Part shown: piece by piece, positions 21,651-26,949 of the stretch
Numbering within the stretch: the first letter of the stretch is position 1
Layout: each line of letters begins with the position of its first letter
Assembly: GCA_963827685.1 (NCBI GenBank)
Contig: CAWHBU010000005.1
Location: forward strand, 128,001 to 192,000
Direction: 5' to 3'
Length of the DNA stretch: 64,000 nucleotides
Source of the DNA: an uncultured delta proteobacterium
GTDB lineage: Bacteria > Desulfobacterota > BSN033 > UBA1163
Notes under the pieces: model-generated
Database searches by the model: none
The model's input: the letters and a program-made list of their open reading frames with translations, nothing else
Told to the model about the DNA's origin: nothing
Position numbers and translations under genes: made by a program

Positions 21651-21850
21651 AAGCTCCAAGGCTCAAGCACCTGCCTTCGCCGAAGCGCCTGCCCTCCGCA
21701 AGGCTTCTGGAGGCGGGGCTTCGCGCAGGCAGGCCAAATCACAAATAAATTCCAATATCCAAAATTCAAAATTTCAAACAAAATCGTTTTGGTATTTCGA
21801 AATTGTAATTTGGAACTTGTTTGGCATTTGGAATTTGTAATTTGGAATTT
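21651..21850. repeat. Inverted heptamer-like arrays interrupted by a two-layer palindromic mini-element (21670-21733)
   Basis: AAGCTCC AAGGCTC AAGCA[insert]CC AAATCAC...AATATCC AAAATTC / TTTGGAA...TTTGTAA TTTGGAA; insert has CCTGCC...GGCAGG termini. Confidence 0.8.
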
Positions 21851-21889: not shown

Positions 21890-22891
21890 TCAATTTTTTG
21901 ATGGTAACGGTGCCAGATGGATCCGTCCGTCGGCTGGCATCCCGGGCTTGAGTTCATGATCCTTATTGGAAATATCCACCTTAATCCGGTAGACCAGGGT
22001 CACCCTCTCCTTTTCCGTCTGAATCTGTTTAGGTGTGAATTCGGCCTGGGAGGAGATGAAAGAAATTTTCCCTTTGTATTCCTTTTTCGGCCGAAGGTCA
22101 GTGGTCACAATCACCTCCTGGCCCCATTTCACCTGACTGAGGTCCGTCTCCGGGATATATGCCTTCAACCAAACATTTTCGATATCGGCCATGGTGAGAA
22201 TGGATGTCCCTGGATTGACGACCTCACCGATTTCTCCAGATTTCACCAGGACGACTCCGGATATGGGAGAATAGAGAGTGGTGTAGCTGAGCTGTGTCTC
22301 ATTCAGTTTCACAGAGGCCCGGCCTTGATCCACTTGAGCTCTCGCATCTTCAATATCCTCTTTCCTCGGCCCCTCCTTCACCAGAAGGTAGTTCTCCGTA
22401 GCCTTTTGAAAAGTGGCCTTGGCGATCTTAAATGCAGCCTCGGCATTGTCCGACGTCTCTTTAGGAACAACCCGCTTCTCGAAGAGGGACTTCATCCTTT
22501 CGTATTGGGTCTCCTTGTTCTCTAGATCGAACTTAGCCTGGTTGAGTTCGGCCTCCGCCTGTCTTATTTCTTCCGGTCTTGACCCCGCAAGCAGTTTGCT
22601 CAATCGAGCTTGCGCCGACATCAACGCGGCCCGTGCCACGTCAAGACGGTTGCGGAGATCTTCATCATCCAATTTGGCCAGAACTTTTCCTTGATCTGCC
22701 CAATCTCCCTCCTCAAAAGAACGACTGACAATCCTTCCAGAGACTTTAAACCCCACATCTACTTCTGTAGCCTCTATGTTTCCAGAAACCTTGATGAAAG
22801 TCCCCTCCGCCTCTTTTTCTCTTGTGAAGAAATAATAGAGAAGACCTCCTATAGCAACAGCCATGATAACAATCAGCAAGATCCGTTTCAT
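21890..22891 (-). CDS. HlyD-family periplasmic adaptor (YbhG-like)
   Basis: VSGNIEAT, G.R.EEI, AEFTPK.IQT..ER..LVY. Confidence 0.92.
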   Translation of the reverse strand: MKRILLIVIMAVAIGGLLYYFFTREKEAEGTFIKVSGNIEATEVDVGFKVSGRIVSRSFEEGDWADQGKVLAKLDDEDLRNRLDVARAALMSAQARLSKLLAGSRPEEIRQAEAELNQAKFDLENKETQYERMKSLFEKRVVPKETSDNAEAAFKIAKATFQKATENYLLVKEGPRKEDIEDARAQVDQGRASVKLNETQLSYTTLYSPISGVVLVKSGEIGEVVNPGTSILTMADIENVWLKAYIPETDLSQVKWGQEVIVTTDLRPKKEYKGKISFISSQAEFTPKQIQTEKERVTLVYRIKVDISNKDHELKPGMPADGRIHLAPLPSKN

Positions 22892-22967
22892 CTTCCAACC
22901 TATCCTAAGTCTTAAGGCACATCATTATAAATTCTATTATGATCACTGTCAAAACTTTTCCCCTCTT

Positions 22968-23170
22968 CCCTTCTCCCCCTGGGGGAGAGGGGAAGTCGCC
23001 GACGCGCCATAGCCTGCCTTTGCCAAAACGCTCTCGCCTGCCGGAGAAATTGCCTGCCTGCGCGAAGCCCCGCCTGCCAAAGCCTTGTGCGGCGGGCAGG
23101 CGCTTCGGCGAAGGCAGGTTCGGCGAGCAGGTCGTGCAGGCATGCTGCTCTGGCAACGGCGCGGGTGAGG
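22968..23170. repeat. Nested stack of six short palindromic elements
   Basis: Removing inner units one at a time restores intact outer units; the 23053-23118 unit is the reverse complement of the outer unit at 21670-21733. Confidence 0.75.
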
Positions 23171-23185
23171 CGTAAGAGAACCCTC

Positions 23186-24615
23186 TGTAATCCCAAAATG
23201 ATAATGTCCTAATTGACCAATTTAGAAATGTCCTCTTTTCGACATGCTAAGATGCCCTTTTTCAGAGGAGGGCATGATGGCAGGAGAGGACATGATCATG
23301 GTACGTCAGGGAGAGTTAAAGCGGTTACATGTCATCCAGAAGGTCCTGGAGAGGGTCATCAAGCGGGTAGAGGCAGCAGAGATTCTTTCCTTGAGTGGTA
23401 GGCAAATTCGGAGGATCGTGAAGCGGATCAGGAATGAAGGGAACAGGGGAGTCATACACAAATCGAGAGGGAGGCCATCAAACCGGAGGATACCCTATAA
23501 GATTAAGGACAGGGTGATCCGACTTTACCGGGCACAGTACAAGGGTTTTGGGCCGACCCTGGCCTCGGAGAAGCTTCTGGAAAGGGGTAGGATAGAGATC
23601 AGTGATGAGACCTTACGGAGGTGGCTCATCGAGGCGGGGGATTGGAAGAAGAGCCGCAAGAGAGGGAGGCATCGTCAGTGGAGGGAGCGGAAGCATCATT
23701 ACGGCGAGATGGTACAGATGGACGGGTCCCATCACGCTTGGTTTGAGGACAGAGGTGGCCCCTGTGTTCTGATGAGCTATATTGACGATGCTACCGGGGA
23801 AGCCTTTGGGAGGTTCTATGAGTATGAGGGGACGATCCCGGCGATGGATAGCTTCAAGCGTTATATCAAGAAAAACGGTTTACCGATGAAGGTGTATTTG
23901 GATAAGCATTCGACCTATAAGTCGACGGCCAAGCCAACGATCGAGGACGAGTTAAATGACGTGGGGCCGTTAAGTGAGTTTGAGAGGGCCTTAAAAGAGT
24001 TGGGGGTAGAGGTCAGTCATGCCCATTCGCCGCAGGCCAAGGGGCGGATTGAACGACTCTTTCGGACCCTTCAGGACAGGCTGGTCAAGGAGATGCGTTT
24101 AAGAGGGATCAGGACGATTGAGGAAGGCAATCAGTTCTTAGAGGAATATCTTCCTCTCTATAACAAGAGGTTCTCTGTTTGGCCCCAGGAGAAAGACGAT
24201 TTCCACAGGCCCTTACCTAAGGGGGTGGATCTGGATGCGATCTTATGCATTAAGACAGAGCGAGCACTGAGAAATGACTTTACGGTGGCTCATAACAGGA
24301 AGCTCTATCAGGTTGAGGATACGATCAAGGCCTCCAAGGTGATGGTTCAGGATCGAATCGACGGATCAATGGTCATGACCCATAAAGGTCGAGCTTTGAG
24401 ATTTAAAGAGATCACTGAGAGACCACTAAGAGAGAAGAAACAGCCGGCTATTGTGAGAAGGAGGAAGACTTACATTCCTCCGGCTGATCATCCTTGGAGG
24501 AAGTTCAAGATTAGGAAACATCCCTATAACAGAGAAAAACTCTTAGAATCTCAAATCTGAAGAATAGGACATTTCTATTTTGGTAAGAAGAGGACATTTC
24601 TATTTTGGCTTGACA
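23186..24615 (+). mobile_element. IS1202-family (formerly ISNCY) insertion sequence with 17-bp target duplication
   Basis: Ends TGTAATCCCAAAATGATAATGTCC / rc TGTCAAGCCAAAATAGAAATGTCC; internal repeated AATGTCC sites; GGCGTAAGAGAACCCTC at 23169-23185 and 24616-24632. Confidence 0.9.
23277..24560 (+). CDS. DDE transposase (rve/integrase core with N-terminal HTH)
   Basis: QMDGS, IDDAT, YLDKHS, PQAKGRIERLFRTLQDRL. Confidence 0.93.
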   Translation: MAGEDMIMVRQGELKRLHVIQKVLERVIKRVEAAEILSLSGRQIRRIVKRIRNEGNRGVIHKSRGRPSNRRIPYKIKDRVIRLYRAQYKGFGPTLASEKLLERGRIEISDETLRRWLIEAGDWKKSRKRGRHRQWRERKHHYGEMVQMDGSHHAWFEDRGGPCVLMSYIDDATGEAFGRFYEYEGTIPAMDSFKRYIKKNGLPMKVYLDKHSTYKSTAKPTIEDELNDVGPLSEFERALKELGVEVSHAHSPQAKGRIERLFRTLQDRLVKEMRLRGIRTIEEGNQFLEEYLPLYNKRFSVWPQEKDDFHRPLPKGVDLDAILCIKTERALRNDFTVAHNRKLYQVEDTIKASKVMVQDRIDGSMVMTHKGRALRFKEITERPLREKKQPAIVRRRKTYIPPADHPWRKFKIRKHPYNREKLLESQI

Positions 24616-24632
24616 GGCGTAAGAGAACCCTC

Positions 24633-24661
24633 TTGAATTTTCTTATAGTTACGAGTAAGAT
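24633..24661 (+). promoter_or_regulatory. Putative sigma70 promoter of rel
   Basis: TTGAAT-17 bp-TAAGAT. Confidence 0.55.
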
Positions 24662-24667
24662 GGGTTT

Positions 24668-24776
24668 GTGAAGCCCTCCGGCCAGAGGCCGGGGCTTCCC
24701 GGGAAAGGAATACTGTTTTGATTGTGCCCCTTGACCCCAACCTAGAAGGCGGGGCTTGCGGGGCACTTGCCGGCCA
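24668..24776. mobile_element. ~109-bp double-hairpin non-autonomous element resembling IS200/IS605 ends
   Basis: GAAGCCC.CCGGCC-AGA-GGCCGGGGCTTC and GTGCCCC..CCCC..GGGG..GGGGCAC hairpins; family assignment is inference. Confidence 0.55.
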
Positions 24777-24777
24777 A

Positions 24778-26949
24778 ATGTTAAGATTCAATGACATCCT
24801 TGAAAGACTAACCTCCTATCATCCCAATGCGGATATAGAACTCCTAAAGAAAGCCTATGTTTTCTCTGCCAAAGTTCATTTAGGGCAGGTCCGCCTCTCC
24901 GGAGAACCCTACCTGAATCATCCCTTGGAAGTCGCTGGAATCTTGACTCAACTGAAACTCGACGTCGCGAGCGTGGCAACCGGCCTGCTTCACGATACGG
25001 TGGAGGATACCCTAACCACCCCCAAGGAAATCCAGGAAAATTTCGGGGAAGAAATCGCTCAGTTGGTAGACGGCCTGACCAAGATCAGCCTGATCTCTCT
25101 ACGATCCTCTGAAGAACACCAGGCAGAAAATTTCCGCAAGATGATACTGGCAATGGTGAAGGACATTCGGGTCATCCTGATTAAACTGGCTGACCGCCTC
25201 CATAACATGCGAACTCTTAAATATCAATCTCCTGAAAAACAGGCGGAGATCGCTCAAGAAACCCTTGACATCTATGCTCCTCTGGCCGATCGTCTTGGAA
25301 TAGACTGGATCAAATCGGAGTTGGAAGATCTGGCTTTCCAATACCTCCATCCTGAAATCTACGACGAGATTCGACGCAAGATCGCGAAAAAGGAAAAGGA
25401 GAGAACCCGTTACATCGAAGAGGTGAAGCGTACCTTAATGAAGAAACTCTATGAAAACCATACCCAGGGCGAGGTGACCGGCCGATTAAAACAGATTTAC
25501 AGTATCTACTTGAAAATGAAAGAACAGAACATCGATTTTGATCAGGTCTATGACATTACCGCTTTCCGGGTCATCGTCAATTCCATTAAGGAATGCTATG
25601 ACGTGCTGGGTATCATCCACTCCATCTGGAAGCCCATTCCCGGGAAATTCAAGGATTACATCGGCCTTCCCAAAGAGAATATGTACCAATCCCTTCATAC
25701 CACCGTGATCGGACCCTATGGGGAGCGGATCGAAATCCAGATTCGAACACATGAAATGCATAAGATTGCCGAGGAAGGCATTGCCGCCCATTGGAAATAC
25801 AAAGGGGGAAAAGTGGTTGAAGAGGCGGAGGACAAACGTTTCACCTGGCTGAGACAGCTCTTAGAGTGGCAGCGAGATCTAAAGGATAATCGAGAATTCA
25901 TTGAAAGTGTCAAGGTGGATCTCTTCCCGAATGAAGTCTACATCTTCACCCCAAAAGGCGAGGTCAAACAGTTCCCCATTGGTTCAACCCCTATCGATTT
26001 TGCTTACAGCATCCACTCCGACATCGGGAATCATTGCGTGGGGGCGAAGGTGAACAGTAAGATCGTCCCTCTGAGATATGAACTGCGAAGCGGGGATACC
26101 ATCGAAATCCTCACCTCCCCCAATCAGAAACCGAGCAAGGATTGGCTTAAATTGGTCAAGACCTCACGGGCCAAAGCAAAAATTCGCCAATGGTTTACAG
26201 CAGAAGAGAGGGAAAAATCGATCACCCTTGGAAAAGAAATCCTGGAGAAAGAACTTCAAAAATATGACCTCCAGCAGGCCAAACTGATTAAATCAGGCGA
26301 TTTGGCCAAGGCAGCCAATGAATTCAGTTACCAGGGAGTCGAGGACCTCATCGCGGCAGTAGGTTACGGGAAGGTCACCGCCAATCAGATCATTGGGAAG
26401 ATCCTTCCCCAGGAAAAATTTGAACAACAGAAAGAAGAACTGCAAGAGGGACGCCTCAAGCACCTCCTCCAAAAAATCACTCGCGGACCCAAGGATGCCC
26501 TCCTGATCAAGGGGATTGATAATGTGATGGTGCGCTATGCCAGGTGTTGCAATCCCGTCCCCGGAGATAAAGTGGTGGGATTCATCACTCGAGGCAGAGG
26601 AGTAACCATCCATACTGCAGATTGCCAGAATGCGATGGATGACGATCCTCATCGCAAGGTCGAGGTGGAATGGGATTCAACGAAGGAATACAGTTATCCC
26701 GTACGAATCCGAATCCATTCTGAGGATAAAAAAGGACTGCTGGGTGAGATCAGCAACTCCATATCCTCCAACGGAGCCAACATCAAGAATGCCAGAGTGG
26801 ATACAACAGAGGATAAAAAAGCCGTCAGCAATTTCGAGGTGGAGATACGAGATTTAAACCACCTCAACAAGGTGATCAGAGCGCTCGGGAAGATTAAGGG
26901 GGTCCATCAGGTAGAAAGAATGAGGGTGGAGGCACCGGCCGAATCCTGA
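24778..26949 (+). CDS. rel: Bifunctional (p)ppGpp synthetase/hydrolase (RelA/SpoT)
   Basis: H.GQ.R.SGEPY..HP, LHDTVED, KLADRLHN, YQSLHT, TGS and ACT domains; start at ATG 24778. Confidence 0.96.
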   Translation: MLRFNDILERLTSYHPNADIELLKKAYVFSAKVHLGQVRLSGEPYLNHPLEVAGILTQLKLDVASVATGLLHDTVEDTLTTPKEIQENFGEEIAQLVDGLTKISLISLRSSEEHQAENFRKMILAMVKDIRVILIKLADRLHNMRTLKYQSPEKQAEIAQETLDIYAPLADRLGIDWIKSELEDLAFQYLHPEIYDEIRRKIAKKEKERTRYIEEVKRTLMKKLYENHTQGEVTGRLKQIYSIYLKMKEQNIDFDQVYDITAFRVIVNSIKECYDVLGIIHSIWKPIPGKFKDYIGLPKENMYQSLHTTVIGPYGERIEIQIRTHEMHKIAEEGIAAHWKYKGGKVVEEAEDKRFTWLRQLLEWQRDLKDNREFIESVKVDLFPNEVYIFTPKGEVKQFPIGSTPIDFAYSIHSDIGNHCVGAKVNSKIVPLRYELRSGDTIEILTSPNQKPSKDWLKLVKTSRAKAKIRQWFTAEEREKSITLGKEILEKELQKYDLQQAKLIKSGDLAKAANEFSYQGVEDLIAAVGYGKVTANQIIGKILPQEKFEQQKEELQEGRLKHLLQKITRGPKDALLIKGIDNVMVRYARCCNPVPGDKVVGFITRGRGVTIHTADCQNAMDDDPHRKVEVEWDSTKEYSYPVRIRIHSEDKKGLLGEISNSISSNGANIKNARVDTTEDKKAVSNFEVEIRDLNHLNKVIRALGKIKGVHQVERMRVEAPAES

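Follow-up and report, generated by a model that had tools for sequence, protein, structure and literature searches.

The DNA analysed here is a 64,000-nt stretch (the window) of the genome of an uncultured delta proteobacterium (GCA_963827685.1, contig CAWHBU010000005.1, positions 128,001 to 192,000 of the forward strand), and our subject is a GC-rich island at positions 22961-23170, which lies between two divergent genes, an HlyD-family gene on the - strand (21890-22891) and a RelA/SpoT gene on the + strand (24718-26949). Coordinates are window positions unless a contig is named; the source genome (G000) consists of 14 contigs, which are given C-numbers. The island has a G+C content of 61-70%, compared with 46-48% genome-wide, and its approximately 200 bases were parsed into six nested units, L1 to L6. 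We think it probable that this nest arose as very small mobile elements, gene-less and hairpin-forming, inserted one after another. Six layers had already been proposed in the original prediction, which was made from the letters alone, and all of them are present, although the borders given here, fixed from empty sites, differ from the earlier ones by 1-2 bases per border. From left to right, the parts of the nest are:

22961-22995, + strand: left part of L1, with a C-rich stem, a short loop, a first G-rich stem and an AAG loop, similar to the BoxC/PIT/TM_ECO triplex motif.
22996-23012, + strand: left arm of L2, a 35-bp unit.
23013-23032, + strand: left arm of L3, a reverse-oriented 33-bp family A variant that has 3 substitutions.
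23033-23052, + strand: left arm of L4, a 33-bp unit of family B (GGAG subtype), with the family A insertion site ...AACTTG|TTCGG.
23053-23068, + strand: left arm of L5, a 34-bp unit of family A with the ends CCTGCCT/AGGCAGG and 0 differences from the commonest form.
23069-23100, + strand: L6, a 32-bp B-like unit at the centre of the family A unit, between its positions 16 and 17 (ambiguous by one C).
23101-23118, + strand: right arm of L5.
23119-23131, + strand: right arm of L4, family B.
23132-23144, + strand: right arm of L3, its end mutated to GGCATG.
23145-23162, + strand: right arm of L2, placed from the same paralogs as the left arm.
23163-23170, + strand: right part of L1, the second G-rich stem GGGTGAGG; the join ...AAG|GGGTGAGG is uninterrupted in paralogs.

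To define the layers, the region was searched against the source genome with short-word BLAST, and the two arms of L5 were paired. Full-length ungapped copies number 58 for L5 (32 exact, 12 with one mismatch and 11 with two) and 8 for L3, the latter in different hosts, while L2, L4 and L6 have three each. The L4 copies are all exact, the L2 copies all occupy loop 2 of triplex-type motifs, flanked by a G-rich stem and a GGGTGAGG-like sequence, and the L6 copies each lie within an L5-type unit at the identical point. No L6 outside family A was found in the genome. The layers are separate, gene-less, multi-copy units inserted into one another, as had been claimed, and the expectation that each would occur uninterrupted elsewhere was borne out, in the case of L6 only within L5-type units. 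Among the 68 pairs of L5 arms, 62 are uninterrupted (57 + 5), four carry an insert of 29-31 bp, one carries an insert of 67 bp, and one consists of two adjacent copies. L3, correctly described beforehand as a decayed reverse copy of L5, is the 33-bp family A variant in reverse orientation, and L4 and L6 share their ends and a CCTGCCAAAG block (family B), so that the nest alternates between A and B types.

Intermediate stages of the nest also exist in the genome. We found an empty L2 at C3:~563720 and C3:~634270, L2 with an intact L3 at C4:~657700, L2 with L3 and an empty L4 inside it at four loci, and L4 with L5 but without L6 at three loci. The composite of L5 and L6 (66 bp) has a 100% identical copy at C5:208152-208218 and was found in three different host types, and at the nest it probably arrived as one piece. 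As both the L2-L3-L4 series and the L5-L6 composite exist ready-made, the six layers need fewer than five local events. As we read it, the decay agrees with the chronology proposed originally, with the inner layers younger: L5 and L6 show 0 differences from their units, compared with 3 for L3 (including its mutated end), 1-3 for L4 and 1-2 for L2.

The borders of the family A unit were tested by joining the flanks of each copy and searching the genome with the joined flanks. Paralogous empty sites were recovered for 57 of the 68 copies, many with 90-98% identity over 36-51 nt, and they equal the left flank plus the right flank exactly, confirming that there is no target duplication. From these junction-spanning empty sites, the unit, hereafter element A, is 34 bp long (CCTGCC...GGCAGG) and has perfect inverted ends of 7 bp. 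The pattern CCTGCC-N8-34-GGCAGG, close to the one originally suggested for a genome-wide search, occurs 184 times in the source genome and 5 times in a reversed-genome control; the window holds two occurrences, compared with 0.05 expected. The window contains a second family A copy, on the - strand at 21670-21733 (C5:149670-149734), which carries a 29-bp L6-like insert and has a heptamer-periodic repeat as its host; it lies between an ABC-transporter ATPase gene and the HlyD-family gene.

Element A has a shorter relative, a 20-bp form with the sequence CCTGCCTGCCGG[T/C]AGGCAGG, which is present in 50 asymmetric and 16 symmetric copies (~66), and some 40-bp variants carry another inner hairpin. 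The 20-bp and 34-bp forms use the same insertion sites, but their common part is only the 7-bp terminal stem CCTGCCT/AGGCAGG. In 172 copies these 7-bp ends vary only at positions 1, 5 and 7, in a single copy each. Variation within A in the source genome falls mostly at positions 13, 21 and 27, and all four combinations of 21 and 27 occur. The stem shared by the two forms, together with the occurrence of the 66-bp composite in three host types, suggests that recognition may depend on the ends and that the elements tolerate inner cargo. One idea is that A could be drawn as a Y-shaped fold consisting of a 9-bp stem, a GC(GNA)GC mini-hairpin and a GC(TNCG)GC hairpin. In such a fold, positions 13, 21 and 27 would lie at unconstrained spots, the junction linker would be the place of L6 and the TNCG loop that of another B insertion, but the energy model favours a plain long hairpin (-13.3 versus -4.6 kcal/mol with DNA parameters, -19.5 versus -9.4 kcal/mol with RNA parameters).

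The hosts of A in the source genome are triplex-type motifs (junction ...loop-G|GGAGAGG), heptamer-periodic arrays (...ATTTGG|TGCTTGG and (CCGCAAT)n), an A-like palindrome, family B and further repeats, and the orientation and position of A are fixed for each host type. The heptamer-periodic tandem arrays are, we presume, comparable to the short tandemly repeated repetitive (STRR) sequences of cyanobacteria. Among the triplex-type hosts both loop and stem differ and the junction is always G|GGAG-like; near-identical A copies in such differing hosts argue for independent insertions. The 20-bp form occupies the same two sites of the triplex motif, including loop 2, the site of L2 in the window, and is also found in a ~110-bp repeat and in the loops of about ten repetitive extragenic palindromic (REP) sequences with GTAG, of the kind that flanks a gene resembling those of REP-associated tyrosine transposases (RAYTs). 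In a target logo built from 51 host clusters (170-172 copies), G makes up 71% and A 25% of position -1 (purine in 96%), A is found at +1 in only 2%, and there is weak T-richness at -5 to -3 without any conserved tetra- or pentanucleotide. The earlier statement that the elements target hairpins holds in part: the junction lies at most 1 nt from a predicted hairpin loop in 23 of the 51 host clusters (0.45, compared with 30% of all positions in those sequences), but the other hosts include the heptamer-periodic tandem repeats. With respect to genes, 41 of 57 A copies lie between tandem genes, 10 between divergent and 2 between convergent ones, and 4 in crude open reading frames, leaving 53 of 57 outside these frames. 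A shows no bias relative to the strand of the neighbouring gene (16 same, 25 opposite), and none is apparent relative to the local GC-skew sign (21/15 and 11/10, in a genome of 14 contigs).

The outermost layer was originally taken for a REP. With the nest removed, its layout is that of the BoxC/PIT/TM_ECO motif, namely a C-rich stem, a loop, a G-rich stem, a 3-nt AAG loop and the second G-rich stem GGGTGAGG, and by its sequence L1 thus resembles a relative of this intrastrand-triplex motif and not a REP. The published consensus is CCCTCNCCC-N3-6-GGGNGAGGG-N3-GGGNGAGGG (Holder et al. 2015, PMC4666352), from which L1 departs in having CCCTTCTCC... instead of CCCTCNCCC. The motif is described there as conserved across bacteria, with its way of spreading left open. 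Mini-elements occupy the loops here, whereas the description of the two loops in that study mentions no other elements in them (PMC4666352). The source genome contains 26 strict and 92 relaxed matches to the triplex motif, compared with 0 in controls.

Metagenome data provide further evidence for the nest, in the form of contigs, not reads, from four runs of four studies. In the probable source run (X1), contigs corresponding to 22984-23080 and 23090-23183 span the junctions, and a contig from a run of another study (X3, record 19) covers 22985-23082 with 0 differences from the window. Together, the X1 and X3 contigs cross the five left-hand junctions identically, and the X1 contig covering 23090-23183 (record 4) crosses the right-hand junctions. 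An insertion sequence (IS) adjoins the nest, and a contig joint in X2, 23167->24615, represents an IS-free form in which the right end of the nest is kept. The junction-spanning contigs in runs of two studies, together with this IS-free form, indicate that the nest is genuine and predates the IS. In a genome of the same genus (G246), both flanking genes are syntenic at 83-87% identity, and at the orthologous site ~68 bp stand in place of window positions 22951-24775, without the nest, the IS or the 110-bp repeat. The nest is also missing at this site in two further family genomes, making three relatives in all with conserved flanking genes. The metagenome contigs give a partial answer to the suggested check for filled and empty forms: a further X2 joint, 22960->24622, carries G246-type letters and skips L1 and the whole nest, while the joints 23010->23144 (empty L2) and 23048->23119 (empty L4) may come from paralogs. 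X3 also contains a loose end after 23014, a hint of an empty L2 at the nest that is unlinked to the flank.

Element A is not confined to the source genome. We scanned one genome per species for exact A with three positions left free; the pattern fixes the end positions of the foreign copies and leaves 13, 21 and 27 open. At least 117 loci in genomes of other species contain exact A, and among the matches listed it occurs in records named as six phylum-level groups. By record title, the 80 loci listed out of these at least 117 comprise 51 of Deltaproteobacteria, Thermodesulfobacteriota or Syntrophaceae, 17 of Nitrospirota (including the complete chromosomes CP058931.1 and OZ245007.1), 4 of Bacteroidota, 3 of Dehalococcoidia (Chloroflexota), 3 of Pirellulales (Planctomycetota) and 2 of Zixibacteria. 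Within its own phylum A was present in only 6 of 401 sampled genomes, with 55 copies in the source genome and 12, 3, 3, 1 and 1 in the others; other genomes in which copies were counted hold 86, 28, 13 and 2. This patchiness, combined with letter identity, argues for horizontal spread. The flanks of foreign copies include the same host types as in the source genome as well as lineage-specific ones. In three Nitrospira-type genomes (G401-G403), the only host of A is a ~90-bp repeat with a terminator-like hairpin (GCCGCTGGCGGC followed by a T-run) at its end. This repeat has 67-75 matches in each genome; 2 to ~8 copies per genome are filled and most are empty, with the flanks abutting exactly (e.g., G401:C1:1793677-1793768). 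Viral contigs yielded A in one case and the 20-bp form in 54 stretches, at the centre of palindromes. A viral contig with seven 20-bp copies showed only further palindrome hosts and no enzyme lead.

On the reading that the nest grew by successive insertions, an enzyme acting in trans would recognise the terminal stem and tolerate the internal cargo. It would join the element into exposed sites of structured repeats, just after a purine, and such sites may be the loops of triplex-type motifs, REP hairpins and other mini-elements, as well as heptamer arrays. Either the capacity to move these elements or the elements themselves would then spread horizontally, possibly with viruses, as the 20-bp form is also found in viral contigs.

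A number of observations count against this interpretation. No enzyme was identified among the candidate families that we examined, which were Y1/HUH, TnpB, GIY-YIG and DUF559 in 13-30 genomes; the original prediction had likewise noted no candidate in the window. A profile search for TnpB (PF07282) in the source genome gave 0 matches. Nuclease or transposase genes bearing A-type termini, which had been proposed as a lead, were not found in the source genome, and no gene is boxed by A-type units there or, in three other genomes, by two A copies lying close together. The ends of the 22 largest of the 45 long-repeat (IS) families were read, and none are CCTGCC/GGCAGG. The absence of any apparent strand bias relative to GC skew or gene direction means that there is no positive sign of single-strand transposition, and the enrichment at predicted hairpins is weak. 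Composites may inflate the count, as filled copies that are duplicates of composites would bring the number of true events below the copy number, and eight copies share one long flank. Some of the contig joints may be paralogs, the evidence being contigs and not reads. Finally, the cross-phylum matches outside the Nitrospirota and delta groups come from a few metagenome-assembled genomes (MAGs) and could be mis-binned.

Two of the candidate families are represented in the source genome by genes with repeats of their own. A small Ssn-type GIY-YIG gene (G000:C5:121252-121476) is flanked by NTS-like hairpins, GTCATTCCCGC...GCGGGAAT and GTCATTCC...GGAAT, and not by A; these hairpins are very similar to the Neisseria NTS/SRM repeat (GTCATTCCCGCAGAAGCGGGAAT). 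Of 13 family genomes, 9 yielded DUF559; it was not found in G124, which has A, and G011, a genome in which no A was found, does have it, so its presence does not track A. Both DUF559 (Vsr-like) nuclease genes of the source genome (G000:C7:124532-124849 and G000:C3:786163-786387) have triplex-type CCCTC...GAGGG motifs on both sides, and the open frame of one of them reads through such a motif at its start. The source genome is very repeat-rich in general: its 45 long-repeat families account for 184 regions of at least 500 bp, among them two ~560-bp IS200-like elements with 18+3 copies.

An HUH/Y1 enzyme, be it a RAYT, a Y1 protein with a helix-turn-helix (HTH) domain or an IS200-like TnpA, could move the units as single-stranded hairpins, with A as a REP/REPIN-like or palindrome-associated transposable element (PATE)-like passenger. 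Such chemistry was suggested originally, and it would fit the absence of target duplication, the hairpin shape of the units and their insertion in the loops of REPs and other hairpins. The source genome also has 25 Y1 matches at E <= 0.001 (26 at E <= 0.01), comprising 21 IS200-like copies and four divergent ones, namely two RAYT-like genes with their own GTAG REPs and two Y1+HTH genes, and IS200-related hairpins occur in the ~110-bp repeat family. We nevertheless consider this explanation unlikely. Y1 genes are present in 13 of 13 family genomes searched, including those without A, and inspection of 30 Y1 loci in four A-bearing genomes showed no A-type CCTGCC...GGCAGG unit within ~1.5 kb of any of them. 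The end hairpins of the 21 IS200-like copies are unrelated to A, as are the hairpins flanking the RAYT-like genes, and A lacks the terminal GTAG/CGTC tag. Only a purine at -1 is shared among targets, rather than the 4-5-nt target of IS200/IS605, A has no apparent orientation bias relative to GC skew, and REP families are usually lineage-specific, whereas A is identical across phyla. One of the RAYT-like genes, at G000:C6:428228-428560, has flanking GTAG REPs of the form GTAGCGTCGGCA-loop-TGCCGACG. The other RAYT-like gene is at C2:956110, and the two Y1+HTH genes are at C4:98678 and C6:19634.

It is also conceivable that there is no dedicated enzyme, and that rare illegitimate insertion was followed by gene conversion or recombination among host repeats and by DNA uptake between species. 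Nearly all A copies are in multi-copy repeats with position and orientation fixed per host type, the triplex-type host is itself conserved across bacteria (PMC4666352), and no enzyme was found. We judge this improbable, as A occupies 51 distinct host clusters, and triplex-type hosts differ in the loop right at the junction, where a conversion tract would have to end at most 1 nt from the element. Moreover, the homology arms are only 10-20 nt long, and the 20-bp and 34-bp forms use the same sites while sharing only their ends. Less probable still is that the nest is a selected structural or regulatory element acting in transcription, mRNA stability or protein binding, and not selfish DNA. The 226-nt region does have a very stable predicted fold (-66.6 kcal/mol compared with a shuffle mean of -50.75, z = -4.54, with 0 of 200 shuffles as good), A is strictly conserved outside its three variable positions, and the nest has divergent genes on its two sides and stood upstream of relA/spoT until the IS came in. 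However, it is missing at the site in the three relatives, the orientation of A relative to genes is mixed and only 2 of 57 copies lie between convergent genes, copies occur in many unrelated contexts, and an Rfam search of 22700-23500 returned nothing near threshold. That the nest is an assembly artefact or a chance cluster of GC-rich palindromes is hardly credible. Short-read assemblers do break at such repeats, and the Logan contigs are fragmented here, but the junction-spanning contigs are identical in runs of two studies, which also disposes of the misassembly concern voiced originally; the same composites recur at other loci, and the motif far exceeds its control.

The neighbourhood of the nest contains two further repeats. 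The IS at 23187-24614 encodes an HTH + rve-type transposase (gene at 23244-24560) and is flanked by an 18-19-bp direct repeat, GGCGTAAGAGAACCCTCT, at 23168-23186 and 24615-24633; its relatives form families of 7 and 3 in the genome. The ~110-bp repeat at 24665-24779 (GTGCCCCTTGACCCC...GGCGGGGCTTGCGGGGCAC) is missing at the orthologous site of the three relatives and is multi-copy elsewhere, and G124 has 41 matches to a query containing it. The 20-bp element frequently lands in this repeat, whose hairpin is similar to the one at the right end of a second IS200-like family.

It has long been an open question how REPs, BoxC/triplex motifs and other bacterial mini-repeats spread, and A offers a clean presence/absence character for addressing it, traceable in dozens of host repeats and several phyla with exact borders, empty sites and dated layers. 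It also provides evidence of horizontal movement of such elements, which sets it apart from REPINs, and it offers an explanation for the "mosaic" GC islands between genes on which gene callers and assemblers stumble. In a biochemical search for the enzyme, A or the 20-bp form could serve as substrate, with triplex-motif loops and the REP loop as targets, and recognition of the stem alone with free cargo, if true, would also make an interesting tool for short-DNA insertion. More speculatively, the 20-66-bp CCTGCCT...AGGCAGG hairpins might be the smallest known class of transposable DNA, recognised only by a 7-bp terminal stem, with mini-elements as cargo and aimed at unpaired spots of folded repeats. 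They would be moved by a class of nuclease or transposase not yet linked to repeats and would cross phyla partly on viruses. We put this forward tentatively; if it is correct, such nests are a fossil record of parasites upon parasites in bacterial intergenic DNA.

Several known systems resemble parts of this picture. Full-size insertion sequences such as IS1397, ISKpn1 and IS621 target REP hairpins, and like A they insert at small palindromic repeats, often at the loop. They carry genes and produce target duplications, however, whereas the invader here is a 20-35-bp gene-less palindrome. This targeting of REP hairpins by insertion sequences has been described by Tobes & Pareja (2006, PMC1525189). 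The Ssn GIY-YIG single-strand nuclease is paired with hundreds of NTS/SRM hairpin repeats across phyla and was shown to cut its repeats, not to move them (PMC11893778). SRM repeats lie beside a small GIY-YIG gene of the cd10448 type and bear a CGTC-type upstream tag. Such hairpins are unrelated to A, and the Ssn-like gene of the source genome is accompanied by NTS-like ones. Miniature inverted-repeat transposable elements (MITEs; for background see PMC3184786 and PMC2229807) are 50-500 bp long, generate target duplications and have ends that match a resident IS. A is similar to a MITE in being non-autonomous with terminal inverted repeats (7 bp), but it differs in causing no target duplication, the Nitrospira flanks abutting as well, and in having no resident IS with the same ends. 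PATEs, which derive from IS200/IS605, also lack target duplications; their two subterminal hairpins differ from each other, and they insert 3' of a fixed target of 4-5 nt with an orientation bias towards the lagging-strand template, whereas A has no fixed target beyond the purine at -1.

The closest comparison is with REPs. Together with bacterial interspersed mosaic elements (BIMEs) and REPINs, these 20-40-bp imperfect palindromes are regarded as non-autonomous and are associated with RAYT (TnpA-REP) (PMC2817692, PMC3116915, PMC3333891), and REPs "inserted within small palindromes" in three species are the nearest precedent for the nest (Di Nocera et al. 2013, PMC3733652). A shares with REPs its size and imperfect palindromic form, its high copy number, its intergenic location, its occurrence in mosaics and its lack of target duplication. 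A, B and L2 differ from REPs and REPINs in having no terminal GTAG/CGTC tag, as the GTAG of the asymmetric 20-bp form lies inside its stem and loop. A RAYT gene is flanked by its own repeats, whereas no Y1 gene is flanked by A or B. Our search of the literature by sequence parts and concepts returned no description of family A, which is not proof that it is unpublished, as most subscription journals lay outside that search. REPINs are lineage-specific and inherited vertically, while A is letter-identical across phyla yet sparse among genomes of its own phylum. Compared with REPs, A and B units also stack six deep, and the minimal unit is 20 bp. Family A is thus apparently an undescribed family of REP-like mini-elements that spreads horizontally and has an unusually broad host range.

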